This document shows, one piece after another, positions 9,129-36,036 of a DNA stretch of 38,082 nucleotides. Numbering within the stretch: position 1 is the first letter of the stretch; each line of letters opens with the position of its first letter. The notes below the pieces were generated by a model. The model saw nothing but the letters and a program-made list of their open reading frames with translations, was not told the origin of the DNA and made no database searches. The stretch covers positions 1 to 38,082 of the forward strand of contig JARYLH010000002.1 of the NCBI GenBank assembly GCA_029907755.1, in the 5' to 3' direction. The translations under genes and the position numbers were made by a program. The DNA comes from Candidatus Methanosuratincola sp. (GTDB lineage Archaea; Thermoproteota; Methanomethylicia; Methanomethylicales; Methanomethylicaceae).

Positions 9129-9333
9129 CGCGACCCCCTTACGTTTACGGTTAATATTCCCCTGTGCGTAATAAAAATGCTGATCTTGAAACATTCGGTC
9201 AAGACTGTTTTATAGCCTTTTGCCCTCGCCTGAGCAAACGAGTCTGCAAACAGGGGTTCCGAACCAGAGGTCAAACAAATCAGTCTTCAGGAAAAAAAGG
9301 ATATCGGAAAATCGGAAGCGGGTGCGCGGGAGC

Positions 9334-9777
9334 TCACTCGATCCTTATGGATTTTTTCTTTGCCTTTTCGAGCTTGGGCATCCTTACCTCGAGGACGCCG
9401 TTGTTGAAGGTCGCCTTCACCCTCGAGCTGTCCACCTGGCATGGAAGCTCGATCATCCTGTAGAAGTTCATAGACCTTCTCTCCCTCCTCCTGAAGCCTT
9501 CCTTCTCAACGGCGACCTCCTCCTTCTGGGAAGTCTTGATCTCGAGCGTATTGTCGACAAGGTTAAGCTCTATGTTCTCCTTGGGGACGCCAGGCAGCTC
9601 CGCAGTCACAATAACCTCATCTGCGGTCTCGTTGATGTCTACCAGCGGCTCCCTGAACCCAGGCTCCCTTACGGCGGGCAGCCTCTTCTGCATCTCTTCG
9701 GTCATGCTTCCCATGAACCTCTCCATCTCCCGCATCATCCTCCGGAAATCATCGAATATGTCGATCCCGTAGGACAT
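9334..9777 (-). CDS. hsp20: Small heat-shock protein, Hsp20/alpha-crystallin family
   Basis: Alpha-crystallin domain: VDINETADEVIVTAELPGVPKENIELNL ... RMIELPCQVDSSRVKATFNNGVLEVRMPK. GAGGTGG SD lies 7-13 nt upstream of the ATG. Confidence 0.9.
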   Translation of the reverse strand: MSYGIDIFDDFRRMMREMERFMGSMTEEMQKRLPAVREPGFREPLVDINETADEVIVTAELPGVPKENIELNLVDNTLEIKTSQKEEVAVEKEGFRRRERRSMNFYRMIELPCQVDSSRVKATFNNGVLEVRMPKLEKAKKKSIRIE

Positions 9778-9794
9778 GCTCGACCACCTCTGGA

Positions 9795-9840
9795 TTTAGA
9801 ATATATCGCAGTAAAATATATATCTTTCTGTAGTATATGA
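9795..9840. promoter_or_regulatory. Bidirectional AT-rich promoter region between hsp20 and cdc48
   Basis: ATATATC occurs twice (9801-9807, 9818-9824). The ATATATAT core (9816-9823) is about 41-42 nt from both start codons (9777 and 9860). Confidence 0.45.
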
Positions 9841-9859: not shown

Positions 9860-12019
9860 ATGACTGAGAGAAAATCAATAGAGCTTGAAGTTGCGGAGGC
9901 GCGCACCCGGGATGTGGGTCGGGCCTTGGCTAGGCTCAACCGACAGACGATGAGCAGGCTCGGGTTGAGGCCTGGCGACTTCATAGAAGTGGAGGGGAAG
10001 CGGCGGACCGTCGCCATAGCGTGGCCCGCGTACGCTGAGGACGAGGATCACGAAATAATCAGGATTGATGGGATAATACGGCACAACACCGGGACCTCCA
10101 TTGGCGACACTGTGAAGGTCTCGAGGGTCGAGCTCAAGCCCGCCTCAAAGATAGTGCTCGCCCCGACAGAGCCGATAAGGTTCAGCTCTGACTTCGGAAT
10201 GTACGTGAGGCAGATCCTTGAAGACAAGCCGCTGAGCAAAGGCGATACAGTTATGGTGCCGATCCTAGGCGAGGCCCTTAGGCTCGTAGTCGCATCGATA
10301 CAGCCAGAACAATCAGGATACGTCACGGAGGAATCGGAGGTCGTCGTGAAGGAGGAGCCGGTAAAGGAGATCGACACCTCCAGGCCTAAGGTATCCTACG
10401 AGGACATCGGAGGGCTCGCGGACGCAAAGGAAAAGATAAGGGAGATGATAGAGCTCCCGATGCGCCACCCTGAGCTCTTCAAGCACCTCGGCATAGAGCC
10501 CCCTAAGGGTGTGCTGATGTACGGCCCTCCGGGCTGCGGCAAGACGCTCCTCGCGAAGGCGGTCGCAAACGAGTCAGGCGCCAACTTCATCACCATCAAC
10601 GGCCCGGAGATCATGAGCAAGTTCTACGGCGAGTCGGAGCAGAAGCTCAGGGGGATCTTCGAGGAGGCCGAGAAGAACGCTCCTAGCATCATATTCATTG
10701 ACGAGATCGACTCGATCGCGCCTAAAAGGGAAGAGGTATCTGGCGAGGTCGAGAGGCGCGTCGTCGCCCAGCTGCTCGCGCTCATGGATGGGCTCAAGAG
10801 CAGGGGCCAGGTCGTTGTGATAGCCGCTACCAACCGTCCTGACGCGTTGGACCCCGCCCTGAGAAGGCCAGGCAGGTTCGACCGCGAACTTGCCATATCG
10901 ATGCCCGACAAGAAGGGGAGGCAGGAGATCCTCCAGGTCCACGTAAGGGGCATGCCACTAAGCGAGGACGTAAAGATCGATGAGATCGCTGCCATGACGC
11001 ACGGCTACAGCGGGGCTGACCTGGCTGCGCTCACCAGGGAGGCCGCGATGCGGGCACTGAGGCGGTTCCTCCCGAAGCTTGACCTCCAGAAGCAGACGAT
11101 ACCCGCCTCGATCCTGAATTCGCTGAAGGTCTCCAAGGCTGACTTCCTCGAGGCGATGAAAGACATAACCCCCTCTGCGCTCAGGGAGGTCTACGTGGAG
11201 GTTCCTGAGGTCCACTGGGATGACGTTGGCGGCCTCGCAGACGTGAAGAGGCAGCTGCAGGAGATGGTCGAGTGGCCCCTGAAGCACCCTGAGCTCTTCG
11301 AGCAGATGGGCATCGAGCCGCCGAAGGGCATCCTGCTCTACGGCCCGCCAGGCACGGGCAAGACGCTCCTCGCGAAGGCTGCAGCCACCGAGAGTCAGGC
11401 CAACTTCATCAGCGTCAAGGGGCCCGAGGTCCTCAGCAAGTGGGTCGGCGAGTCCGAGAAAGCGATCAGGGAGATCTTCAAGAAGGCAAGGCAGGCTGCA
11501 CCGTGCATTGTATTCTTCGACGAGCTGGACTCCATCGCTCCGAGGAGGGGCGGCCACACAGACTCGGGGGTCACCGAGAGGATGGTCAACCAGATCCTCT
11601 CAGAGATGGATGGGCTTGTCTCCCTGAAGAACGTCGTTGTCATTGGTGCGACCAACAGGCCGGAGCTCATCGACCCGGCGCTGCTCAGGCCAGGGCGATT
11701 CGACAGATCCGTCTATATACCGATACCCGACAGGGCTGCCAGGGAGGAGATCTTCAAGGTCCACACGAAGAAGATGCCACTTGACGAGGGCGTTGACCTG
11801 AAATTACTGGCAGAAAAGACCGAGGGCTACACCGGTGCTGACATAGCTGCGGTCTGCCGCGAGGCTGCGCTGAGCGCCCTCAGGGAGGACATGAAACCGA
11901 AGAAGATCCAGATGAAGCACTTCGAGTCCGCCCTCAAGGCCATACGGCCGAGCGTCTCCAAGGAGGACCTGCTCAGATACGACGACTCGAAAAAGATGCT
12001 AGGGAAGATGTTCGTCTAG
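9860..12019 (+). CDS. cdc48: CDC48/VCP-type AAA+ ATPase (N domain plus two AAA modules)
   Basis: Two Walker A motifs ([30 protein letters not shown]), two Walker B motifs ([16 protein letters not shown]), and a CDC48 N-domain-like start (LEVAEA...GRALARL). 719 aa. Confidence 0.9.
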
Positions 12020-18423: not shown

Positions 18424-18839
18424 TATCCAAGCACTCCTGAATATGGGTAGTCAGTAGCCTACATTATTTTTAACTTTATCGGATAGAACTCTACAGACTT
18501 AGCCTTCTTCCTTCACATGTTGTCCTACAAAGCTGAAAACACTGCAGGGCATTTTTGAAGTTGAACAAAGGAGCAACGAGCAGAGAATAAAAACACGGCG
18601 GACTCATCGTGAGTATAACGACCAGCCCAGCATTCTCGGGCGGGGGTTGTGGGGGTTGGACGATCCTCAGATCCTGTGGAGAGGTAACCCCTGCTTGCGG
18701 TTACACCAAGCATCATCGTTGAAGCAGAAAGCCCCTTCAGATAGCGAGGGGCAGTTCGCCATTTACGGTCTTATCTTCGCCATCTATAATTGCCTATTTT
18801 GGCGGGTTTCGTTAAGGATACTTTTAAAATAGGGCATAG

Positions 18840-19295
18840 GTGATACCTACGTCGGTGAGCTCATTGAGCGAGAATGTCGCCTCCCCCAAACTCGGAGAGA
18901 TCAGGGCATTCCTGGATCAGGGAAAGCCGTTTGAGGTCAGATTTGAGGGTGATGAAGTGTGCGTCTCTGAAGCGAAGGGGGTAGTCAAGATTTCGCTGTC
19001 TAAGGAAGAGACAAAAGGCATAAGGGTGAGGAAGTCTGCAAGGAAGATCCCCTCTGCGCAGAAAGAATTCGTGATGAACTCTGCCAGCATCCTGATCCCA
19101 AAAAAAGTCCCCTTCAAAGTGACGTTCGGGCCGAAAGAGACGACTTTCAGGTTCGACCTTGACCGCTACATCCACATTTACCCTGATAAGTGTGCGGTCG
19201 TCGGCTTCAGGAGCTTGGAAGAACACCCCGTCTCACTTGTCAGAGCGCTGTTGTCCGCGTTCCCGAACCTAAAGGTATACGCGCCGAAGAGTTGA
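18840..19295 (+). CDS. Hypothetical protein (no recognisable motifs)
   Basis: 151-aa ORF starting at GTG. The start is uncertain because a TATA-like CTTTTAAAATA box lies only 10-20 nt upstream; in-frame GTG 18855 is an alternative. Confidence 0.4.
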   Translation: MIPTSVSSLSENVASPKLGEIRAFLDQGKPFEVRFEGDEVCVSEAKGVVKISLSKEETKGIRVRKSARKIPSAQKEFVMNSASILIPKKVPFKVTFGPKETTFRFDLDRYIHIYPDKCAVVGFRSLEEHPVSLVRALLSAFPNLKVYAPKS

Positions 19296-19489
19296 TCGCC
19301 TTGGAGATCAAGAACATCTTCTATTTGGCAGGTCTCATCCTGGTCTTCATCCCTGCCTTCTCATACGCCTACCTTTCCAGATACGGCATTTGGGGGCAGC
19401 CCCTCCTCCCGCAGATCCTGAGCATCGTCGTCTTCTGCATCGGGCTGGTTTTGATCCTCTTCGCAGAAAGTGGGAAGGGTAAAAGATAG
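19292..19489 (+). CDS. Possible small two-TM membrane protein
   Basis: A TTG start overlaps the stop of the upstream ORF (TTGA). The product has two hydrophobic helices (IFYLAGLILVFIPAFSYAYL, ILSIVVFCIGLVLILFA). No homology is recognisable. Confidence 0.3.
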   Translation: MIALEIKNIFYLAGLILVFIPAFSYAYLSRYGIWGQPLLPQILSIVVFCIGLVLILFAESGKGKR

Positions 19490-19503
19490 CGCTAGGAGAT
19501 CCG

Positions 19504-20505: not shown

Positions 20506-20712
20506 CCCAAAGTCTCCTTGAGAATAATAAGCCCGGCGCTCTATAAAAATTGAGCAGGGTCTCGGTGCGCTTATGGCTATGGCGCGGGCAAAACCGGTCT
20601 CCTTCCGGGCGTACAGAAAGGGTTTGCCCTCCGCACTTCTTCAAGTCTTGACTGGCTGCAGTATGCTGAAGAACCGAAATGGTATTATTGCTTCCTACCG
20701 AAATTATTGATC

Positions 20713-21348
20713 ATGTCTGACCCTTACAGCACTTTTGTCCAGTCTCTATCAAAGGCTGTACAGCCAAAGGGACCTGCTGCCGCATACACGCCCGTTCACG
20801 TCGTAAAGGCATTGCTGATAATCGAATCATCGAAATCGGTCGGGAGGGTGATGCTGGCGAGGGTTCTTGGGATAGGGGAGGGTTCGGTCAGGACAATTAT
20901 AAAGCGCTTGCAGCAGCAATCCCTCATAAGCATCGACAGCATCGGAGGTTGCGCCCTTACCCCCATTGGACGTGAAGTGCTCGCCCAGATCAAGAACGGC
21001 ATGGTGTCCTCTGGTCCGATAGACCTCAGCGGGATGGGAGTCACATACCCCTCGTTCGCGCTCCAGGTAAGACTTGACGTGTCGGCGCACTCCGTGCTGA
21101 AGCTACGGGACGTTGCGATCAGGTGGGGCGCGGAAGGGGGGATGGTCTTCCACTTCTCCGGGGGGAGGATAGTTGTGCCCTCGATAACAGAAGACCTTTC
21201 GCAGACCAGCCCTTCCACGTATTATGAGCTCATGAGCAGGTTCAGGCTCCAGGACGGCGACTACGTACTTGCTGCTTTCGCCAACGATGCAGCCTCAGCC
21301 GAAACGAGCGCACTAGCGGTCTTCCTATTCCTGAAGGGCATACAATGA
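20713..21348 (+). CDS. Winged-HTH domain protein with uncharacterised C-terminal domain (putative regulator)
   Basis: VGRVMLARVLGIGEGSVRTIIKRLQQQSLI is wHTH-like. ATG 20713 is preferred over TTG 20707. It lies 69 nt upstream of the ABC operon. Confidence 0.5.
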   Translation: MSDPYSTFVQSLSKAVQPKGPAAAYTPVHVVKALLIIESSKSVGRVMLARVLGIGEGSVRTIIKRLQQQSLISIDSIGGCALTPIGREVLAQIKNGMVSSGPIDLSGMGVTYPSFALQVRLDVSAHSVLKLRDVAIRWGAEGGMVFHFSGGRIVVPSITEDLSQTSPSTYYELMSRFRLQDGDYVLAAFANDAASAETSALAVFLFLKGIQ

Positions 21349-21417
21349 AGTTTTATCATCCAATTGTACACAAAAAGCATATATCGGAGCAAAAATAGGG
21401 TTTTTTGGGAGCAAGAT

Positions 21418-22386
21418 ATGGTGAATAAAATCCTTATTGTATCTTTGGTTGCCCTAGTTGTAATTATTGGCGGTCTCTACGCCTCCGGCATGATCTTCCC
21501 GCGCGAGGCCGAAACCATAAGGATCGGCCACCTGACAGGGGACCTCCATCACCTGGCGCTCTTCGTGGCAATCAATCAGGGGTACTTCGAGCAGTACGGG
21601 ATAAAGATACAGCTAAAGGAGTACGTTAACGGCCCATCTCTTATGCAGGACTTCTTGGCAGGTGAGCTGGACTTCGCTTACGTCGGCGCACCCCCAGCAA
21701 TATCTGCCAGGGCAAAAGCACTCTCTGATCCGAAATCACACCTGCCCGTAGTCATAGCTTCAGTCAACCTGGAAGGATCTGCAATAGTCGCAGAGGCTGG
21801 CATAGATACGCCTGACGACCTCGCCGGCAAAAACATTGGAACTCCTGGCACCGGCACAATACAGGACATAATGCTCAGCATGTTCCTCAGGGAGCGAAAC
21901 ATAACCATCACGAAGAGCCCGATGTCGATCTCCACGCTGCCCCTTGAATTCAGCAAGGGCGCAATCGACGGATTTATCGGCTGGGAGCCTGCCCCCTCGA
22001 TAGCTGTTGTCCAATCAGGGGCCCATGTGCTCCTCACATCCCATGAACTGTTCCCCAACCACCAGTGCTGCGTGCTGGTAGTCTCCAACAAGTACCTCGA
22101 GGCACACCCGGACATAGTCCAGAAGTTCGCGCAGGTGCACAAGATGGCAAACCAGTACATCCTTAACAACCCAGAATCGGCAAAGCAGATCGCGATGAAC
22201 GTAACCGGCTATTCCTCGGACATAATACAGCTGGCTCTTTCGCACATAGTCTACACCTCGACCCCTGACCCTGAGAGCATGAAGACATTCTTGCACTCGA
22301 TGATCGACCTGGGTGTCGTAACCACCGTATCGCACGATCAAGTCGACGGGTTCATAAACGCATTTATAGACACGCGTTTCATCTAA
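21418..22386 (+). CDS. ABC transporter substrate-binding protein, NitT/TauT (NMT1/THI5-like) family, N-terminal TM anchor
   Basis: ATG 21418 gives MVNKILIVSLVALVVIIGGLYASG, a signal anchor with no lipobox Cys. The fold matches type-2 periplasmic binding proteins of the sulfonate/nitrate/HMP type (IRIGHL...GELDFAYVGAPPAISA...GFIGWEP). Confidence 0.7.
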   Translation: MVNKILIVSLVALVVIIGGLYASGMIFPREAETIRIGHLTGDLHHLALFVAINQGYFEQYGIKIQLKEYVNGPSLMQDFLAGELDFAYVGAPPAISARAKALSDPKSHLPVVIASVNLEGSAIVAEAGIDTPDDLAGKNIGTPGTGTIQDIMLSMFLRERNITITKSPMSISTLPLEFSKGAIDGFIGWEPAPSIAVVQSGAHVLLTSHELFPNHQCCVLVVSNKYLEAHPDIVQKFAQVHKMANQYILNNPESAKQIAMNVTGYSSDIIQLALSHIVYTSTPDPESMKTFLHSMIDLGVVTTVSHDQVDGFINAFIDTRFI

Positions 22387-22401
22387 TGAAGAGTGATTTG
22401 G

Positions 22402-23184
22402 ATGGAGCGCCTCGATCGGGTAAAGGGCACACTGCTAGGGGCACTGTCCCTGGCAGTATTTTTTATCATCTGGCAACTGGTCGCTTGGTACCTTAATTCA
22501 CCGTTCCTTCCGGGGCCCTATGACGTGCTTCAGGCATTCGGAAGGATCTCCACGTCGGGGGACATCGACGGTTACACCCTGTATTCGCACTCGCTCATGA
22601 GCATCTACAGGGTAATGCTGGGCTTCGGCTTCGCAGGGATCACCGCAATCCCGCTGGGGGTCTTCATGGGGCTGAAGCCCTCCGTTAACAGTGTGTCCAC
22701 ACCGATAATAGAGCCTATAAGGTTCATACCCCCCATCGCATGGATCCCGCTTTCCATAATACTCCTCAGCGGCTTGGGGCGTTACATCTTCCTTATTTGG
22801 ATAGGCGCTTTCTTCCCTATACTCCTAAACACCATAGCTGGAGTGAAGCGCACATCGCCAGTCCTCGTGGACATGGCAAAGACGTTCGGTGCTGACAGCA
22901 GCACAATCACGTCTAGGATAGTCTTCCCCAGCGCACTCCCTGAGATTATGAGCGGACTGAGGGTAGGGCTCGGGGTGGGGTGGATGTGCATTGTGGCTGC
23001 CGAGATGATCGGCGGAGAGCCTGTTGGGTTGGGGCGTCTGATAATAAAGTACGCAAACCTCTACCAGATCGACGTTGTGATACTCGGCATGATAACCATC
23101 GGGATAATCGGTCTGGTGCTGAACTACGGCATCCTGACTGCAGAGAAGCGGCTCTTCAAGTGGAGGGTCGAGGTCAAGGCGTAG
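22402..23184 (+). CDS. ABC transporter permease, NitT/TauT family
   Basis: About 6 TM helices and an EAA-type loop (AKTFGADSSTITSRIVFPSALPEIMSGLRVGLGVGW). An alternative GTG lies at 22393. Confidence 0.8.
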   Translation: MERLDRVKGTLLGALSLAVFFIIWQLVAWYLNSPFLPGPYDVLQAFGRISTSGDIDGYTLYSHSLMSIYRVMLGFGFAGITAIPLGVFMGLKPSVNSVSTPIIEPIRFIPPIAWIPLSIILLSGLGRYIFLIWIGAFFPILLNTIAGVKRTSPVLVDMAKTFGADSSTITSRIVFPSALPEIMSGLRVGLGVGWMCIVAAEMIGGEPVGLGRLIIKYANLYQIDVVILGMITIGIIGLVLNYGILTAEKRLFKWRVEVKA

Positions 23185-23187
23185 GTG

Positions 23188-23952
23188 ATGGCTTTGGTAG
23201 CCGCTATTGAGCTCAACTCGGTCGGAAAATTCTTCGAGTCGGGAAAAGAAAAGATTGAGGTGATAAAGGACATCACCCTCAGCGTGGACGAGGGAAGGTT
23301 CGTCTGCGTCGTGGGCCCCTCGGGCTGCGGCAAGACCACGCTCCTGCGGTTGATGTGCGGGCTCCTCCAGCCGACGAGCGGCAAGGTGCTCGTCAATGGC
23401 AACCCGCCGGATCCTAAGAAGAACCGCTTCGGGGTCATATTCCAAGAGGACTCGCTGCTGCCTTGGAAAACCGTGCTCGAGAACGTCAAATTCGGCTTGG
23501 AAGTGACTAGGAGCAAGGGCAATGCCGATTCCACGGCGAGGGAGTTCATAGCCATGGTCGGCCTGAGGGGGTTCGAGGACTACTACCCGCACCAGATCTC
23601 GGGCGGCATGAAGAAGCGCGTCGCGATCGCCAGGGCTATGGCGGTGGATCCTGAGATAATACTCATGGACGAGCCATTTGCGGATCTCGATGCTCAGACC
23701 AGGCAGATACTCCAGAAGGAACTTCTGAGCGTCTGGTCGAAACTGAACAAGACAGTGATATTCATAACCCACAACGTCGACGAGGCAGTCTTCCTCGGGC
23801 AGGACATCGTCGTTTTGACCAAGCGCCCAGCGAGCGTGAAGGCACTGGTCAATGTGGATCTCGAGTACCCGAGGGCGAGGCTGAGCCCCCCCTTCATATC
23901 GTACCGGGAGAAGATCTTGCGTTATCTCCAGGAGGAGATCACCGCACTTTAG
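23188..23952 (+). CDS. ABC transporter ATP-binding protein, NitT/TauT family
   Basis: Walker A GPSGCGKTT, signature ISGGMKKR, Walker B ILMDEPF, H-loop ITHN. It starts 1-4 nt after the permease stop. Confidence 0.9.
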   Translation: MALVAAIELNSVGKFFESGKEKIEVIKDITLSVDEGRFVCVVGPSGCGKTTLLRLMCGLLQPTSGKVLVNGNPPDPKKNRFGVIFQEDSLLPWKTVLENVKFGLEVTRSKGNADSTAREFIAMVGLRGFEDYYPHQISGGMKKRVAIARAMAVDPEIILMDEPFADLDAQTRQILQKELLSVWSKLNKTVIFITHNVDEAVFLGQDIVVLTKRPASVKALVNVDLEYPRARLSPPFISYREKILRYLQEEITAL

Positions 23953-23962
23953 GGTGTCCTGC

Positions 23963-24517
23963 ATGGAAATGGACGGGTACGATCTCTACGAGGCACTGAT
24001 CTCCGCAGCAATGGAGTCAAATGAGAAGTTTGCAGAGATGCTGAAGTCGGTCATGAAAAAGAAAGGCATCACCGTCAGGGATCTGAGCGCTGGCTCGGGA
24101 GTCCCTGTAAGCACAATCAACAAGATGCTCTCGGAGGAGAGGGATATCCGGCTGTCGACCTTCAGGGAAGTGATCAGGTACATAGCGTCGCAGAGCATGG
24201 AGGTTGTGGGAGACATCACCGTCGGGATAATCGCAGCCCGCCCAGCCCTCAACGCTCTTTCAAGGCACCAGCTCCCAGTGAAGGGGAAAAAAGTGATCAT
24301 TAAGGAATACCCTGCCAACAATCTTGAGGAAGCCATAATCTGCGCCATAAGGGCTGAGCGCAATAGGGTGCAGGGGCTGGTATGTGCCTCCATCGTTGCC
24401 ACTACTGTGGAGAAGTTCGTGAGGATTCCCATCGTCACCATCAAGGTCGAGGAATCGAACATAATCGAATCGCTGAAAGTACTTGTCGACAAGATACTTT
24501 CAACCGAGCTTGTGTAA
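23963..24517 (+). CDS. XRE-type HTH protein with uncharacterised C-terminal domain
   Basis: GITVRDLSAGSGVPVSTINKMLSEERDIRLSTFREV is HTH_3-like. It starts 1-10 nt after the ABC ATPase stop and ends 132 nt upstream of mcrB. Confidence 0.6.
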   Translation: MEMDGYDLYEALISAAMESNEKFAEMLKSVMKKKGITVRDLSAGSGVPVSTINKMLSEERDIRLSTFREVIRYIASQSMEVVGDITVGIIAARPALNALSRHQLPVKGKKVIIKEYPANNLEEAIICAIRAERNRVQGLVCASIVATTVEKFVRIPIVTIKVEESNIIESLKVLVDKILSTELV

Positions 24518-24523: not shown

Positions 24524-24590
24524 TGATGCAAATATAACCTGTTGTTATTGCAGGGTTCTTAAGTGCAGATTATTACTGTGTTTAGGCAAG

Positions 24591-24620
24591 GCTTTAATAT
24601 TCCATACATCTTTAAAATAC
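24591..24620 (+). promoter_or_regulatory. Putative mcr operon promoter (two TATA-like boxes)
   Basis: TTTAATATT (24593-24601) and TTTAAAATA (24611-24619) lie in a markedly AT-rich 130-nt spacer, 30-57 nt upstream of the mcrB ATG. Confidence 0.45.
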
Positions 24621-24649
24621 ACGCAACAAAACTGAAAGAGAGGAGTTCT

Positions 24650-25984
24650 ATGGCGAAATATCCGGATAAAGTAGATCTATACGACGATCGTGGCCGCGTT
24701 TTCGCCTCCAAGGTTCCCGTTGAAGCTCTGAGCCCACTGCGCAACCCAGCAATGCAGAAGATAATTTCCTATGTGAAGCAGTGCGTTTCGGTGAATCTTG
24801 AGGGCATCGAGAAGGCCCTGGCGACCGGAGAAGTTGGTGGCAAATGGTGCATAATCAGGGGCAGATCCTTAAAGCTGGACCTTGTCAAGAATGCTGAGAG
24901 CATCGCCGACAGCCTCAAGAGTTGCCTGCAGGTGACGAAGGACGATGATACCGAGGTTAAGGTCCTCAAGGGAGGGAAGCACCTCCTTGTGAAGGTTCCA
25001 GCAAAGAGGCTGAATGCAGGAGTCGAATACACCACAGGGTTCACAGCTACTGCCGCTGCGCTCTGCTGCACAATTGTCGAAAACTTCAAGGTCAACCTAT
25101 GGGACGCTGACTTGATCCATGCAGCTGTCTGGGGCAGGTACCCGCAGACGATGGAACCGCTCGGCGGAAACGTGTCGTCACTATTGTCGGTTCCGCAACA
25201 GAATGAGGGTATGGGATACGCTCTGAGGAACGTTCCGTGCGCGCACATTGCCCTTATCACTAAGAAGAACGCAATGAACGCAGCAGCCCTCTCCTCGATA
25301 TTGGAACAGGCAGCCATGTTCGAGATGGGCGACGCGATCGGCAACTTCGAAAGGCTACACTTGCTAGGGCTAGCCTACCAGGGTCTGAACGCCAACAACC
25401 TTGTCTACGACATCGTGAAGGAGAACTCTAAGACCGGCACCCTCGGCGATGTGGCGATATCCACAGTCAAGAGGGCTATCGCAGACGGTGTCATCAAGCC
25501 GCTCGAGAAGAAGCCTTCTGGCTACACCGCTTACACGACTGAAGACCTCAACAAGTGGAATGCATACGCTGCAGCGGGTCTGCTGGCTGGCACAATGGTC
25601 ACCTGCGGCTCGGCTAGGTCGATGCAGCACTGCCCGTCCGTGTTCATATACTTCAACGACCTGATCGAGAGAGAAACCGGCCTGCCGGGAGTCGACTTCG
25701 GTAGGGTCGCGGGCACAGGAGTTGAGATGGCATTCTTCAGCCACTCGATCTACGGCGGAGGCAACCCCGCTGTGTTCCACGGCAACCACATCGTGACGAG
25801 GCACAGTAAGGGCTACGCGATACCCTGCGTGGCTGCAGCAGTCGCGCTCGATGCGGGCACAGTCATCTACACGCCCGAGAAGATCAGCGGCGTAGTCGGG
25901 GAGACTCTGAGCGAGGTGCCCGAGCTGAGGGAGCCGCTGAGGTATGTGAATGAGGCAGCAGTTTCAATCCATGGAGGTATCTAA
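24650..25984 (+). CDS. mcrB: Methyl-coenzyme M reductase beta subunit
   Basis: [39 protein letters not shown] is a classical McrB N-terminus. 444 aa. GAGAGGAG SD at 24638-24645. The track extension back to 24563 runs through the AT-rich promoter. Confidence 0.92.
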
Positions 25985-25985
25985 A

Positions 25986-26762
25986 ATGGTAGCGTACAAG
26001 CCACAGTATTACCCGGGAAACTCCAAGATCGCTAAGAACAGGAAGAAGTACCTGGACCCGTCCTACAAGCTTAAGAAGCTGAGGACGATCAGCGACGACG
26101 ACCTGGTGAAGCTGATGGGCCACAGGGTTCCGGGAGAGGCATACAAGTCGGTCCACCCGCCGCTTGAGGAGATGGGCGAGCCGGCATGCCCGATCAGGGA
26201 ACTCGTTGAGCCGACGCCAGGCGCGAAGGCAGGCGACAGGATCAGGTACATCCAGTTCACCGACTCGGTTTACTTCACACCGCTGACCCCATACATGAGG
26301 GCATGGATGGGACACACGAGGTACAGGGGAGTCGACATCGGCGTCCTCTCGGGGAGGGTCCCGCTCGAAGCAAGGGAACGTGACCTGGAGAAGGTCGCGA
26401 AGGAACTCGTCGAGACCGAGATATTCGATCCTGCAAGGTGCGGGATCAGGGGCGCAACCGTCCACGGGCACTCTCTGAGGCTAGACGAGAACGGAATGAT
26501 GTTCGACGCGCTCAGGAGATTCGTCTTCGACAAGAAGACTGGCGAGGTCGTCTACGTGAAGGACCAGATCGGAGTGCCTCTCGACAAGCCTATCTCTGTC
26601 GGAAAGCCGATCAAGGAGGAAGAGCTAAGGGAAATGACTAGCGAGTACAGGGTCGACGGCGTCCCGTTCAGGGAGGACAAGGAAATGGTTGAGTTCGTAC
26701 AGCGCCTGCACATGCTAAGGACGGAGGCTGGATTCGATCCAAATAAGGTGAAGGGGATCTAA
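25986..26762 (+). CDS. mcrG: Methyl-coenzyme M reductase gamma subunit
   Basis: [18 protein letters not shown]...[35 protein letters not shown]...[15 protein letters not shown] matches McrG. 258 aa. GGAGGT at 25973-25978, and the ATG is 1 nt after the mcrB stop. Confidence 0.92.
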
Positions 26763-26775
26763 GGAGGAGATATGA

Positions 26776-28446
26776 ATGGCAACTGAAAAGAAGATGTTCT
26801 TGGAAGCACTCAGGAAGAAGTTCAAGGAGTCTCCAGAAGAGAAGTACACCAAGTTCTACATATACGAAGGATGGAAGCAATCTAAGAGGAAGAAAGAATT
26901 CGTCGAGTGGGGCACCAAGCTGGCGAAGGAGAGGGGCATCCCATTCTACAACCCCGAGATGCACCTAGGCGGCATCCCGCTGGGTCAGAGGGTGCTGATG
27001 CCATACAGGCTATCGCAGACCGACATCTACTGCGAGGGCGACGACCTTCACTTCATCAACAACGCCGCGATGCAGCAGATGTGGCACGACATCAGGAGGA
27101 CTGTTATAGTCGGTCTCGATGCTGCCCACATGGTCCTGCAGAAGCGGCTAGGTAAGGAGGTCACCCCTGAGACGGTGAACCACTACCTCGAGGTGCTGAA
27201 CCACGCGCTGCCAGGTGCTGCTGTTATCCAGGAGCACATGGTCGAGACCCACCCAGGGCTCGTCTCAGACTCGTACGTCAAGGTATTCACCGGAGACGAC
27301 GAACTGGCGGACGAGATCGACAAGCGCTTCCTCATCGACATAAACAAGGAGTTCCCTGCTGACCAGGCTGCACAGCTGAAGGCTGCCGTAGGCAAGCGGA
27401 TCTACCAGGTCCTGCGCATGCCCACAATAGTTGCAATGACCTGCGACGGAGGAACGATGTCGAGATGGTCTGCAATGCAGATCTCGATGTCGATGGTCAA
27501 CGCCTACAAGCTGATGGCTGGTGAAGCAGCAATCGGCGAGTTCGCCTTTGCAGCGAAGCACGCCGAGGTAATCGAGATGGGTACCCTTATGCCATGGAGG
27601 CGCGCGAGGGGTCCGAACGAGCCAGGCGGTGTACCACTCGGATACCTTGTAGACATCTGCCAGGCTTCGAGGGTCAAGCCCGAGGATCCGACATGGGTCG
27701 CGCTTGAAGCCATCTCGATGGGGGCGGTGCTCTACGACCAGTTCTGGTTCGGCAGCTACATGTCTGGAGGCGTAGGCTTCACGCAGTACGCCACGTGCAC
27801 ATACACTGACAACGTCCTTGATGACTTCTGCTACTACGGCGCGGACTATGTCAAGAAGAAGTACGGCGGATTCGGGAAGGCGAAGCCAAGCTGGGACCTT
27901 ATAAAGGACATCGCGACCGAGGTCACACTCTACGGGCTCGAGCAGTACGAGCGCTTCCCAGCGCTGATGGAGACCCACTTCGGCGGTTCGCAGAGGGCTG
28001 CTGTTGTGGCCGCAGGCGCAGGCGTAGCCGTATCGCTCGCTACAGGCAACTCCACGGCAGGCATCAACGGCTGGTACCTGAGCCAGCTTCTCCACAAGGA
28101 GGAGATGGGCAGGCTCGGCTTCTACGGCTACGACCAGCAGGACCAGTGCGGTTCGGCAAACAGCTTCTCGTACAGGAGCGACGAGGGCCTTCCATTCAAC
28201 CTGAGGGGTGTGAACTACCCGAACTACGCCCTGAACGTAGGGCACCAGTCGGCGCACACGGGGATTGTCCAGGCAGCGCACAGCGGAAGGGGCGATGCGT
28301 GGACGACCAACCCGCTGATAAAGATCGCATTCGCCGACAAGGACCTGAAGTTCGACTTCACGCACCCGAGGCTCTGCTTCGGCAAGGGCGCTCTGAGGGA
28401 GTTCATGCCTGCGGGCGAGAGGTCCCTCATCATACCGAGCCGATAA
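26776..28446 (+). CDS. mcrA: Methyl-coenzyme M reductase alpha subunit
   Basis: 556 aa and collinear with canonical McrA as I remember it. Motifs: [81 protein letters not shown] and NVGHQ. AGGAGG SD overlaps the mcrG stop. Confidence 0.95.
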
Positions 28447-28459
28447 GCGACCAAAAACC

Positions 28460-28484
28460 TTTTTTCTTTTTTTCCATTGTTTTT
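28460..28484 (+). terminator. Oligo-T tract downstream of mcrA (archaeal intrinsic terminator candidate)
   Basis: T6 (28460-28465), T7 (28467-28473) and T5 (28480-28484) lie within 40 nt of the mcrA stop. Confidence 0.55.
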
Positions 28485-28495
28485 AATGATTCGAA

Positions 28496-29083
28496 ATGCC
28501 CTCGTCAATAGGAACCCTTTCATTCTCTGAACTGGCGAGCAAGATCAAGGCACTTTCTGTGGCATCTCCGGAGGAGGCTGAAGCGCAGTTCCCTGGATCC
28601 CCCAATTTTGCAAAGTACATAGCACAGCTATTCCTTGAAGACCGGCTTTTTGACATTCTGCCGAGGCTGGAAACTCAGCTCCAGATCGTGCGGCGGTTCT
28701 TCCCTCCAGTAAGGCCCGCTCTCGATCCCTACACATCCACCCAAATAGGGATCTTTTCCAAGCGATTCGATGACTACGAGATAGGTCGTTTTCTTGGTTA
28801 TCCTGAGTGCTGCATGCGGTCCTTCGCAGAGAATGTCAGGTACGGCATAGACGAGGGGCACGTCCAGGAACTAAAGGGATCCGGCATGAAAGCTTTTGCG
28901 ACGACCGCCGGCTTCATACCTTGCAGCATATTCTGTAGGGAAGCCCAGAACAGGGGGCTCCTGTCGTTCATTGAGCCCAATGAGATCGGGAATTTACGTG
29001 CTCTGGAAAAGGAAACCGCGATGCGGCTCCCACACTTCCACCCCGAGTACCGGGAGCATTACTTCGAGGTCAGGCTGCTCTGA
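28496..29083 (+). CDS. Uncharacterised Cys-motif protein (GYPECC ... CSIFC), possible metal-binding MCR-associated factor
   Basis: 195-aa ORF whose ATG is 49 nt after the mcrA stop. Cys105/Cys106 lie in FLGYPECCMRSF and Cys143/Cys147 in IPCSIFC. It vaguely recalls an archaeal DUF family with a GYPxCC motif (unverified). Confidence 0.5.
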   Translation: MPSSIGTLSFSELASKIKALSVASPEEAEAQFPGSPNFAKYIAQLFLEDRLFDILPRLETQLQIVRRFFPPVRPALDPYTSTQIGIFSKRFDDYEIGRFLGYPECCMRSFAENVRYGIDEGHVQELKGSGMKAFATTAGFIPCSIFCREAQNRGLLSFIEPNEIGNLRALEKETAMRLPHFHPEYREHYFEVRLL

Positions 29084-29856: not shown

Positions 29857-30150
29857 TCACCCTGCGCCGCTGCAGCTTCCGCTGGTGTCTATCGTCATGT
29901 CCCCGCCCTTCAGCTGTTCCTCGCTGATCTTCACTTCCTCTTCCTTCACCTTTTCCTTTCCAGCCACCGGTCTTTGTTCCTCTGAAACCAACTCCTGCTC
30001 AACCGGCTCCAGAACGTTTTCGTCATATAGAAGGCCTGTCGCGTCCAATTCCGCCCAAGTCTTGCCGTCCATCTCAACGATTTTGGTGATGTGCCCCTTC
30101 GTCCCCGTCTTCTCGTAGACTACGGCTTCCCCTTCCTTGAACCTCAACAC
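29857..30150 (-). CDS. Small conserved archaeal protein (SH3/Tudor-like N-terminus, charged Lys/Glu tail)
   Basis: 97-aa ORF with a GTG start. FKEGEAVVYEKTGTKGHITKIVEMDGKTWAELDATGLLYDENVLEP resembles small methanogen DUF proteins (unverified). Confidence 0.45.
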   Translation of the reverse strand: MLRFKEGEAVVYEKTGTKGHITKIVEMDGKTWAELDATGLLYDENVLEPVEQELVSEEQRPVAGKEKVKEEEVKISEEQLKGGDMTIDTSGSCSGAG

Positions 30151-32879: not shown

Positions 32880-33530
32880 TCAAAGGCATTTGCAATCCCT
32901 GATCCTTTCGAGGACTTTAATCGCATCCTCCCTCTTCAGGTCCACTCGAGTTTTTTTCATCAGTTCGAGTATCTCCCCTGCCCTCGTGCTGCTGAGACCT
33001 CCACGAACTGCCCTCTGGAGTATTCTAGTGTAGTTCCTCAGCTGGAAGGGGACTTCCTTCGCAGCAACTAGGATGGAGTCGTGCTCTTGTTGGGTTATCA
33101 TCCCCGAAGCCAGAGCCCTCTCAAGCGTTGCCCTGACGTTCACGAGGGGCTCTGAGAGCGGTCTGAGGCTTTCGGGATGGAATGCAAGGGCGACCTCGTC
33201 GTCAGATCTTATCTTGCCTGACTTGTACCATTCATAAATCGTGCCGATGCCAACCATGCCGTAGACATCCAGCTCGGATGCCCTCAGCGCGCCCATGCTA
33301 GAGCCGCCGAAGACCTTTGACCCCCCCTCAATCGCTCTGAGTATTTCCCGGTGAGAGACTGCTGCCTGCTGGTAAAAAACCCCGTCGATCAGGGCTATAA
33401 CCTTCGCCCCCGATTCAGCGACCCTGATGATGTCCCCCCTGGCCGCCGGCGGCAGGTATTCCGCGTCGCTCAGCAACTTCCGGGCAATATCCCATTCCAG
33501 GCTAGGCCCGAGGAATACAACTGCCCTCAT
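32880..33530 (-). CDS. tfuA: TfuA-like protein (partner of YcaO in McrA thioglycine formation)
   Basis: MRAVVFLGPSL...YLPPAARGDI...ALIDGVFYQQAAVSHREIL...GGSSMGALRASEL are TfuA hallmarks. ATG 33530 has a GGAGGGG SD; the track start is GTG 33539. Confidence 0.85.
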   Translation of the reverse strand: MRAVVFLGPSLEWDIARKLLSDAEYLPPAARGDIIRVAESGAKVIALIDGVFYQQAAVSHREILRAIEGGSKVFGGSSMGALRASELDVYGMVGIGTIYEWYKSGKIRSDDEVALAFHPESLRPLSEPLVNVRATLERALASGMITQQEHDSILVAAKEVPFQLRNYTRILQRAVRGGLSSTRAGEILELMKKTRVDLKREDAIKVLERIRDCKCL

Positions 33531-33566
33531 CTTATGCACCGCCGCCCCTCCTGAGCTTTCCCTGCT

Positions 33567-34769
33567 TTAATGCCCCTTGTCCGAATAAGTGGACAGCCTT
33601 CTCCCGGCTCTCTCCTTGTCTAGCGCATAGACCTCAAGCCCGGGGACTATCACGCGGACTGCAGGTACCCCTATCTCCCCTCGAGTGAGGTCGACTACTA
33701 TCACCTCTCGGAGTCCAGCCCTCCCCAGCCCCTCGATGGTGTACCTTATGTCCTCGAGAAAATCCTTTCCAGAAAATGACCTCAACTCGTCAAGGCTGAC
33801 CCTCTCTGGGCATGGGGCGAACCACTTCCTGTTTATCCTCTTCATCCTTTCGTAACCTATCCTCCTGGCGAATTCAGCCTTCACAGTGTCCTCCCTGGTC
33901 CCATGGATGGTAGTCAGCCTGCTCTGAACGGCCTCGGTCAAAGCCCTGACAGCTGCTATCTCAGCCATGAGATGCGTTCCCACGCCGAGCGAGAGGAGCG
34001 CAGGATCCTTCGTCAGCTCGTCGTCAATGGCCACTGCTACTGTTGGAATCCCCACATCCGAGGTGATTTCCTTTGCATATACCCCAATACCTGCCTTCTC
34101 GAGCTTTTCCAGTACCGCCCTGACCATCGGACTGCCGCAACCCGACAGATCGAGGTCCCTTCCCTGCAGCCTCCCTGCCTCGAAGAGGGACCATGCATCC
34201 CTCTCGATCACCTCCATGAGCCCGTGCACAATCGCCTCCTCGAGCGCATTCCCTACAGCGAGACCATTGGTGTTGGTTCGGAAGAGCTGGTTGTGCCTGC
34301 TGTACGGATGGAAAACAGCCTCTGCCGGGACGAGAATTGTCGCGTCCCGCGTCAGCGAGTGCCCTTCGACCCATTCTATCTCCTCGGAAGACTGGTACCT
34401 GCGGGGCAATATCAGCAGATTCGGATCCAACACCTCCCTGTCCCTGCTGATTTCCTTGTATGATCCCCTCACAAGCCTAAGACCCCTGGGCTCCGCAGAG
34501 AACCTCTCGATGCCCTCCATTATTGCCGATACTTCTGCCTCCTCTTGGGAGTAGCCCTTTCCTGTGTAGACCGTGACCGCCCCCTGCGATGCCATCGGTC
34601 TTATTGATGTGAAGATGGGTATGCCGATGCGGTCTAGCCCTGTTATTTCCGCAACCCTGGTGATTCCTGCCTTTTCCTTGACCCTGCTGACCAGCTCCAG
34701 CGTCTTAGCCGGGGGGATCTCCCTATGCATCCCCGCTGTGTATCCCTTGGGGACCGATCTCAGGTTCAT
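33567..34769 (-). CDS. ycaO: YcaO-type ATP-dependent thioamidation enzyme (methanogenesis marker 1)
   Basis: 400 aa with a YcaO-like core (GITRVAEITGLDRIGIPIFTSIRP ... GKGYSQEEAEVSAIMEGIERFS ... NTNGLAVGN). It sits directly upstream of tfuA. Confidence 0.85.
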   Translation of the reverse strand: MNLRSVPKGYTAGMHREIPPAKTLELVSRVKEKAGITRVAEITGLDRIGIPIFTSIRPMASQGAVTVYTGKGYSQEEAEVSAIMEGIERFSAEPRGLRLVRGSYKEISRDREVLDPNLLILPRRYQSSEEIEWVEGHSLTRDATILVPAEAVFHPYSRHNQLFRTNTNGLAVGNALEEAIVHGLMEVIERDAWSLFEAGRLQGRDLDLSGCGSPMVRAVLEKLEKAGIGVYAKEITSDVGIPTVAVAIDDELTKDPALLSLGVGTHLMAEIAAVRALTEAVQSRLTTIHGTREDTVKAEFARRIGYERMKRINRKWFAPCPERVSLDELRSFSGKDFLEDIRYTIEGLGRAGLREVIVVDLTRGEIGVPAVRVIVPGLEVYALDKERAGRRLSTYSDKGH

Positions 34770-34794: not shown

Positions 34795-36036
34795 TTATTT
34801 TCTGGTCTCCTCTAGCTCCTTCATCCCGGATACCATCACAGCTGCGCCGACGCACCCGATCAGGTTGGGCTTTTGGGGGACTATCATCTCTACGCTGAGT
34901 ATCTCCGAGAGTGCCTTGACCAGCCCCTTGACAAGCGCAGTCGATCCGACTTGGATTATCGGGTACCTTATGTCTATCTCCTGGAGCTGCTGCTCGAAGA
35001 CCTGCTCGGCTACGCTGTGGCAGGCGGCTGCGGCCGCATCCTCTGGCTTTGCCCCGCCTGCGAGCCCAGCAACGAGATCCTGCAGCCCGAAGACGATGCA
35101 GTAAGCATTCATGGGCACCGCCTTCCAGTCCCCTTTCATCGCGAGATCCCCGAACTGCTCTATCGGGACGCCGAGCCTCTTGGCAGTGGTTTCAAGGAAC
35201 CTGCCGGAGGCGCCCGCACAGACGCCGCCGACAGTGAAGCTGTCGGGTATGCTGTCGTAGAGCGTTACTGCTTTGTTGTCCATGCCGCCGATGTCTATTA
35301 CGGTGGCGTCACCCCTCTGCTTGTCGGTCAGGAACAGCGCCCCCTTTGAGCAAGTAGAGACTTCCTCCATTGCCAGCTGTGCCTTGTACTTCTCCTTCAG
35401 GATCGTCCTGCCGTAGCCTGTCACCCCGATCCCCTCAAGCTTGGACTCGTCAATGCCAGCCTCCTTGAGCGCCTGGTTCAGCGCCGTCATGCCCGAGTCC
35501 AGCACACTGGTGGTGGGTACCCAACCGTGGCCTATGATCTCATTATCCTTCATAACAACTGCCTTCGTTGTTGTTGAGCCCGAGTCTATCCCAGCGGTTA
35601 TGCCTTCCTGCTTCATCCTTGCGAAGAGTGGCTTCTTGTCTATGATATTCACCAGCGCTTCCATGCGCAGCAGGAGCGCCCCTGCTTTCGTCCTCTCTGT
35701 GAATGAATAGGTCACTACTGGGATCTTAGTCTGGCTCTGGATGTACCTCCTGACGACACTCCTCACGAGTGCGCCCTCAGCGCACCTGAAGCAGGTCGCA
35801 ATGAACACCCCATCCGCATCGACCCTGCCTTCCACTATGGCTTTCGCCCTAGCCATCATCACCCTAAGTCCCGGGCTAGCCACATGGAAGCCGAGCTCGT
35901 CCTCAATCGTCCTGATCTCCGATACATCGACCTCAGGCACGAATATCTGCCCGCCTACGATCTTTGCCGCCTTCTCGATCTCAGCCTGAATCCCGCTGTA
36001 CTCAGAGCCGCATGATATTTGCGCTATCCTGACCAT
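34795..36036 (-). CDS. Methanogenesis marker protein 15-like, BadF/BadG/BcrA/BcrD-type ATPase
   Basis: N-terminal [37 protein letters not shown] module, then an ASKHA/BcrAD fold ([14 protein letters not shown] ... DIGGMDNKA ... [10 protein letters not shown]). 413 aa. Confidence 0.7.

Follow-up and report, generated by a model that had tools for sequence, protein, structure and literature searches.

Does a methyl-coenzyme M reductase (MCR) operon that consists only of the structural genes mcrB, mcrG and mcrA point to an enzyme that is assembled and activated in an unusual way? This question is raised by a 38,082-nucleotide (nt) stretch of DNA from a Candidatus Methanosuratincola sp. (contig JARYLH010000002.1, positions 1 to 38,082 of the forward strand; the whole stretch is called the window below), in which the three genes occupy positions 24650 to 28446. 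A first reading of the window, made from its letters alone (the original prediction), took the compact mcrBGA layout as a sign of a non-classical lineage, or at least of a non-classical genomic organisation, in which McrD may be missing and mcrC must be encoded elsewhere. The layout is real and was correctly read, but it is ordinary and already documented, since it is the norm for a class with public annotated genomes and has been tabulated in the survey of Shao et al. 2022 (PMC9584954). The locus is very probably the single canonical methane-type mcrBGA operon of an H2-dependent methyl-reducing Methanosuratincola, with accessory proteins that act in trans and with the genes of the system divided between two clusters.

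The mcrBGA operon

The three structural genes follow one another on the same strand:

24650-25984, + strand: mcrB, MCR beta subunit, 444 amino acids (aa); ATG at 24650, TAA at 25982-25984; TIGR03257 651 bits (cut-off 516), PF02783 and PF02241
25986-26762, + strand: mcrG, MCR gamma subunit, 258 aa; ATG at 25986, TAA at 26760-26762; TIGR03259 393 bits (cut-off 172), PF02240
26776-28446, + strand: mcrA, MCR alpha subunit, 556 aa; ATG at 26776, TAA at 28444-28446; TIGR03256 1008 bits (cut-off 768)

Nothing is encoded in the spacers, which measure 1 nt (mcrB-mcrG) and 13 nt (mcrG-mcrA) when read directly from the sequence, and the coordinates and spacers given by the original prediction proved exact on re-reading. 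Its further statement, that a GGAGG-type Shine-Dalgarno sequence precedes each start, holds for mcrG (GGAGGT, 7-nt spacer) and mcrA (AGGAGGAG), which carry an exact GGAGG, but only approximately for mcrB, where GAGGAG/AGGAG stands 4 nt before the ATG.

The subunits were identified with NCBIfam equivalog hidden Markov models with curated cut-offs, and the Pfam domains were concordant. All three exceed the equivalog cut-offs and therefore form a methane-type MCR set (McrABG). The best solved-structure match of McrA is the methanogen MCR 5n28_A (892 bits), as against 672 bits to the ANME-1 MCR 3sqg and 548 bits to the ethyl-CoM reductase 7b1s_A. In the alignment to 5n28_A, the motifs GFYGYDxQDQCG and QEHMVE are conserved, and the axial Gln region as well as the His, Arg, Gln, thioGly, Asp and Cys active-site or modification-site positions are kept at the sequence level. 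Judged by these alignments, McrA is a canonical methane-type enzyme, nearer to the methane-type MCRs than to the alkyl- or ethyl-CoM reductases.

The operon is bracketed by two candidate transcription signals:

24569-24649, + strand: putative mcrBGA promoter and 5' untranslated region, with TATA-like boxes CTTTAATATT (24592-24601) and CTTTAAAATA (24610-24619) and a Shine-Dalgarno-like GAGGAG (24640-24645)
28460-28473, + strand: oligo-T stretch TTTTTTCTTTTTTT (14-nt T-run), 14 nt past the mcrA stop, read from the sequence

The ~85 nt before the mcrB ATG are nearly invariant in six Methanosuratincola loci, within flanking DNA that is 78-89% identical, and this conserved leader with its two TATA-like boxes suggests a strong dedicated promoter and leader. 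The oligo-T stretch is likely to function as the archaeal terminator of a three-gene transcript. Because of the conserved promoter and leader, the tightly coupled starts and the oligo-T after mcrA, mcrBGA is probably its own transcription unit.

Lineage of the source organism

A scan for McrA in one genome per prokaryotic species yielded 38 loci. The best of these belong to Methanosuratincola petrocarbonis LWZ-6 (CP130488.1) and Ca. Methanosuratincola verstraetei LCB70 (CP186953.1), in which McrA is 98% (at the amino acid level), McrB 98% and McrG 97% identical to the window's proteins, the gene order is the same from the gamma-carbonic anhydrase gene through the GTPase gene, the same conserved leader stands upstream, and the mcrB-mcrG and mcrG-mcrA spacers are near-identical (4 and 16 nt between tblastn hits). 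McrA identity is 79-93% for the other Methanomethylicia ('Verstraetearchaeota'), 81-82% for Nezhaarchaeota and 73% for the MCR-bearing Archaeoglobi. Collinearity of the window with the two closed Methanosuratincola chromosomes extends for 21 kb, but nucleotide identity along that length is only 88-89%; contigs of the public metagenome-assembled genome (MAG) GCA_050411035.1 and a JGI metagenome contig match the window at 99.8-99.98% identity. Since the nucleotide identity is so much lower to LWZ-6 and LCB70 than to GCA_050411035.1, the source is assigned on sequence grounds to a third species of Methanosuratincola (class Methanomethylicia, phylum Thermoproteota). The non-classical lineage that had been proposed is thus confirmed, in that McrA identity and the 21-kb collinearity place the operon outside the classical euryarchaeal orders. 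LWZ-6 is the isolated, validly named type strain of the genus and an H2-dependent methyl-reducing methanogen (PMC12244365).

A contig of GCA_050411035.1 ends inside a CDC48 gene, at the position equivalent to 10590 of the window, so that the same population is represented by the window in a more contiguous assembly.

Location of mcrD and mcrC

Pfam and NCBIfam scans of all large open reading frames (ORFs) in the 38-kb window found no match to PF04609, PF02505, TIGR03264 or TIGR03260, the families of McrC and McrD. Confidently assigned genes leave only 3.3 kb of the window uncovered, with two unannotated gaps of more than 300 nt: in one of them lies a minus-strand HSP20 gene, and in the other (18424-19503) a 151-aa ORF that matches no family even at E<=1. 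When McrD and McrC of the same genome were searched against the window with tblastn, the best E value was 0.11, and the Archaeoglobi McrD and McrC reached 0.36 at best. The family scans, the inspection of the gaps and the tblastn searches combined uphold the earlier claim that the 38 kb contain no ORF similar to McrC or McrD.

GCA_050411035.1 served as the same-genome reference, and its contig JBNVBW010000003.1, which matches the right half of the window, extends past the window's end and carries both genes:

JBNVBW010000003.1 100942-102612: mcrA on the MAG contig
JBNVBW010000003.1 75941-75615 (9669-9995 of the retrieved stretch L058), same strand as mcrA: mcrD, 108 aa; PF02505
JBNVBW010000003.1 75609-74950 (L058 10001-10660), same strand as mcrA: mcrC, 219 aa; TIGR03264 283 bits (cut-off 213.5)

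From the mcrA stop it is 25.0 kb downstream to the start of mcrD, which lies 15.4 kb past the right end of the window and is followed directly by mcrC. McrD matches PF02505 (precomputed, E<=1e-5) as well as the PDB McrD chains 8gf5_X and 8w33_A. The expectation that mcrC must be encoded elsewhere was therefore borne out, while the suggestion that McrD may be missing was not.

McrC was traced with a profile of Archaeoglobi and Nezhaarchaeota McrC, which led to many McrC proteins named for Methanomethylicia, and the Methanosuratincola McrC cluster (P0030, member P0195) was reached through a metagenome scan with a 181-aa neighbour protein. Two metagenome contigs that are collinear with the DNA just past the window (82-88% nucleotide identity) bear the same mcrDC cluster. 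An exact search of the metagenome contigs with a 40-mer taken from the contig past the window's end gave no match, and a literature search pairing Methanosuratincola with mcrC returned no paper.

A 206-aa ORF on the + strand (9220-9840) was considered as an McrC candidate for its length and rejected: it matches no family and is spurious, the real gene beneath it being the minus-strand HSP20 gene at 9334-9777. Hsp20 has been co-purified with McrC in Methanococcus maripaludis (PMC9584954); the adjacency here probably means nothing.

Two clusters for MCR assembly and activation

On the same-genome contig, mcrDC faces the divergent genes mmp3-mmp6-mmp17-mmp7, an A2-like ATPase gene and a RACo-type activase gene. 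The following methanogenesis marker proteins (Mmp) and ATPase are encoded in this cluster:

mcrDC cluster: Mmp3, NCBIfam 499.5 bits (cut-off 234)
mcrDC cluster: Mmp5, NCBIfam 208 bits (cut-off 140)
mcrDC cluster: Mmp6, NCBIfam 135 bits (cut-off 126)
mcrDC cluster: Mmp7, NCBIfam 392 bits (cut-off 349)
mcrDC cluster: Mmp17, NCBIfam 127 bits (cut-off 67)
mcrDC cluster, next to mmp7: A2-like double-ABC ATPase, 558 aa; 316 bits, below the cut-off of 517

A second group of MCR-related genes lies within the window, downstream of mcrA:

29857-30150, - strand: DUF2098 small protein, 97 aa; PF09871 63 bits
30216-31145, + strand: AIR-synthase-like protein related to methanogenesis marker 2; TIGR03267 241 bits (below the cut-off of 365), PF00586 and PF02769
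31116-32741, - strand: atwA, MCR system component A2, double ABC ATPase, 541 aa; TIGR03269 722.5 bits (cut-off 517)
32880-33539, - strand: TfuA-related McrA-glycine thioamidation protein; NF033432 267.7 bits (cut-off 235)
33567-34769, - strand: YcaO-related McrA-glycine thioamidation protein (methanogenesis marker 1); TIGR03266 468.7 bits (cut-off 365)
34795-36036, - strand: methanogenesis marker 15 (Mmp15), BadF/BcrA-type ATPase; TIGR03286 652 bits (cut-off 456)

The solved MCR activation complex of M. maripaludis is ATP-driven and comprises McrC, Mmp7, Mmp17, Mmp3, A2 and DUF2098 (PMC12176620); the DUF2098 family member was co-purified with that complex and binds a McrC loop (PMC12176620). 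All six components are encoded here, with A2 and DUF2098 in the window, ~1.4-4.3 kb downstream of mcrA, and their partners McrC, Mmp7, Mmp17 and Mmp3, above the cut-offs, in the mcrDC cluster 25 kb away. The thioglycine enzymes YcaO and TfuA are encoded ~4.4-6.3 kb downstream of mcrA. From the mcrDC-mmp cluster together with A2, DUF2098, YcaO and TfuA near mcrA, the gene set for MCR assembly and activation is, by family assignment, entirely present, in two clusters instead of one mcrBDCGA operon.

In the proposed mechanism, mcrBGA would be transcribed as its own unit, while the mcrDC cluster, 25.0 kb downstream on the same strand, would provide McrC and McrD in trans. The gene for McrC stands beside those for its activation-complex partners Mmp7, Mmp17 and Mmp3, and A2 and DUF2098 are encoded near mcrA. 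In M. maripaludis, McrC and McrD have been shown experimentally to act in trans, both in pull-downs and with truncated operons from which fully assembled MCR was still obtained (PMC9584954), and by analogy with Methanococcus the same action is inferred here. The grouping of mcrC with the genes for its activation partners, and not with the structural genes, is compatible with an action of McrC and McrD in trans. For heterologous expression of Thermoproteota MCRs, both clusters would be required, and not mcrBGA by itself.

The second A2-like ATPase and a RACo/AcsV-type reductive activase (L058 2612-6176) adjoin mmp7, and they recur in every Methanomethylicia genus examined.

Conservation of the layout and comparison with known systems

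Among the 30 loci with complete genes, 25 have a tight mcrB-mcrG-mcrA arrangement; these are all of the Methanomethylicia and both of the Nezhaarchaeota loci, and the gaps between their successive tblastn hits (stop codon included) are <=70 nt for mcrB-mcrG and <=79 nt for mcrG-mcrA. The remaining five are Archaeoglobi, in which a gap of 1053-1058 nt between mcrB and mcrG holds mcrD (PF02505, 89.7 bits) and mcrC (PF04609). The order conserved in the class is regulator, binding protein, permease, ATPase, helix-turn-helix (HTH) protein, mcrB, mcrG and mcrA, then DUF483, HAD hydrolase, DUF2098, AIRS-like protein, A2, TfuA, YcaO, Mmp15 and GTPase. An adjacent mcrD-mcrC pair was found in every Methanomethylicia genus looked up, and the mcrDC-mmp cluster in every locus retrieved. 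In the genera looked up, mcrDC is flanked by divergent genes for DUF8179, DUF2102, DUF2113, an MCR_C-like protein, a double-ABC ATPase and RACo, and on the other side by DUF2112. Seven further McrC clusters (P0076, P0022, P0123, P0121, P0097, P0124 and P0167) represent other Methanomethylicia genera, with ~70% nucleotide identity to the window's contig and the same mcrDC-mmp cluster.

These sequence-level results agree with the table of Shao et al. 2022 (307 mcr gene sets), the Supplementary Data 1 of which gives 'BGA // DC' for Methanosuratus petracarbonis, Methanomethylicus and other Methanomethylicia and 'BGA // C // D' for the Nezhaarchaeales (PMC9584954). The locus studied here has each feature of the 'BGA // DC' type: a contiguous mcrB-mcrG-mcrA, a separate adjacent mcrD-mcrC, and a placement in Methanomethylicia by identity and collinearity. 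The original prediction held that the organisation would be unremarkable if the operon fell within a cultured order in which BGA is already the documented norm, with mcrC and mcrD lying just outside the window. This is essentially the situation that was found, in that the genus has an isolated type strain (LWZ-6), BGA is the class norm, and mcrD and mcrC lie 15.4 kb beyond the window.

The classical mcrBDCGA operons of Methanothermobacter, Methanococcus and Methanosarcina, and of Archaeoglobi of the WYZ-LMO2 or 'Methanomixophus' type (the McrA of which is 73% identical), encode the same five products, share the order of mcrB before mcrG-mcrA and show the same methane-type motifs, but have mcrD and mcrC between mcrB and mcrG, whereas here a 1-nt spacer separates these genes and the mcrDC pair stands 25 kb off beside mmp genes. 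The Nezhaarchaeota (Nezhaarchaeales) loci L021 and L034 resemble the window in their tight BGA, their McrA identity (81-82%) and the presence of DUF483, Mmp15 and A2 nearby; in contrast to the window, their mcrC lies ~3.4 kb upstream on the opposite strand and their mcrD ~2 kb downstream of mcrA, so that the accessory genes are split but close. The mcrBGA of ANME-1 differs in that mcrD is wholly absent there and present here; the McrA of the window is nearer to the methanogen enzymes, and its cultured relatives make methane and do not oxidise it.

A 2022 review described Verstraetearchaeota as having a 'complete mcrBDCGA operon' and stated that at least one operon containing both accessory genes is always retained in methanogens (PMC9081873). 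As read here, the sequences of the 25 loci contradict this wording. The result therefore has modest value as a correction, with Methanosuratincola, a proven methanogen, as the counter-example to that review.

Alternative explanations

A complete loss of McrD, implying a different route of F430 insertion, would fit the 38-kb window taken by itself, in which no McrD-like ORF occurs, and would have a precedent in ANME-1, which carries mcrBGA without mcrD (PMC9081873, PMC9584954). It is nevertheless extremely unlikely and was already refuted by the mcrD gene next to mcrC in the same genome, with matches to PF02505, TIGR03260 and PDB McrD; mcrD is also present in every other Methanomethylicia genus examined, and McrA scores far higher against methanogen MCR than against the ANME-1 enzyme (892 versus 672 bits). 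Some Methanobacteriales, Methanococcales and Methanomicrobiales combine a BDCGA copy with a BDGA or BGA copy (PMC9584954), and on that pattern the window would hold a second, isoenzyme-type copy, with a canonical mcrBDCGA elsewhere in the genome. This is very unlikely given that only one mcrA locus was found in each genome, the two complete Methanosuratincola chromosomes included, that mcrDC has mmp genes at its flanks and not mcrB or mcrG, and that the table of Shao et al. gives only 'BGA // DC' for these genomes (PMC9584954). The chance that an assembly or binning artefact removed mcrD and mcrC, or produced a chimeric contig, is close to nil: the window does span position 10590, where GCA_050411035.1 has a contig break, but that break is 14 kb from the operon, and the same order of genes, separated by a few to <=79 nt, recurs in 25 independent assemblies, two of which are closed chromosomes.

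Some points weigh against the preferred explanation, that of a single canonical mcrBGA operon served by accessory proteins in trans. The single copy was deduced from a pattern-based genome scan, by which a very divergent second copy could be missed, and the putative boundaries of the operon were drawn from the spacing, the conserved upstream region and the T-run. The McrD protein reaches only 51.6 bits with TIGR03260 (cut-off 100), covering model positions 73-120, and is without the central insertion that forms a wedge in M. acetivorans McrD; its role as an F430-insertion chaperone is assumed for this lineage. The protein does retain the N-terminal EIEVMPRRL and the C-terminal PYGYDVRVGQFTKPRPTVKDYLRG motifs, aligning to 8gf5_X/8w33_A. 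According to Chadwick et al., the central insertion is absent from many McrD sequences, and mcrD is dispensable in M. acetivorans (PMC10288656).

Other genes flanking the operon

The genes that directly adjoin mcrBGA on either side are the following:

20707-21348, + strand: winged HTH regulator, DUF4443
21364-22386, + strand: SsuA-like binding protein
22393-23184, + strand: permease
23185-23952, + strand: ABC ATPase
23954-24517, + strand: HTH_3 protein
28496-29083, + strand: DUF483 protein, 195 aa; PF04467 107.6 bits; 49 nt past mcrA

It is possible, though rather doubtful, that the DUF483 protein or the importer encoded upstream, each of which is fixed beside mcrBGA across the Methanomethylicia, is a lineage-specific part of the MCR system. 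DUF483 follows mcrA directly in all Methanomethylicia loci, its residues C105, C106, C147, H122, H180 and H182 are invariant (GYPECC...PCS..C...PHFHPEY), and its AlphaFold2 model has a predicted local distance difference test score of 93.5; under the lineage-specific reading it could be a new metal-binding factor of MCR assembly or modification. No sequence or fold match to it was found in the PDB, and the ideas that it is an McrA methyltransferase or a McrD-like chaperone were dropped for want of such a match to solved proteins. Among 1.84 billion representatives the profile finds only 21 clusters, the named relatives belonging to Methanomethylicia, Nezhaarchaeota and one Methanopyri MAG, and a literature search on DUF483 returned only unrelated DUF483x families. 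A role as an MCR factor is weakened by the relatives looked up in the Methanopyri-type MAG cluster, which have KaiC-like ATPase genes on either side and are not beside mcr.

The five tightly packed genes at 20707-24517, directly upstream of mcrB, encode a NitT/TauT-type ABC importer and two regulators, in an order that recurs upstream of mcrB in nearly all Methanomethylicia loci. The ABC genes drew weak 'Sao' names from NCBIfam, with scores far below the cut-offs; these were set aside and taken only as similarity to the NitT/TauT family. Hypothetically, this importer could take up coenzyme M or another sulfonate, which, if true, would amount to cofactor scavenging.

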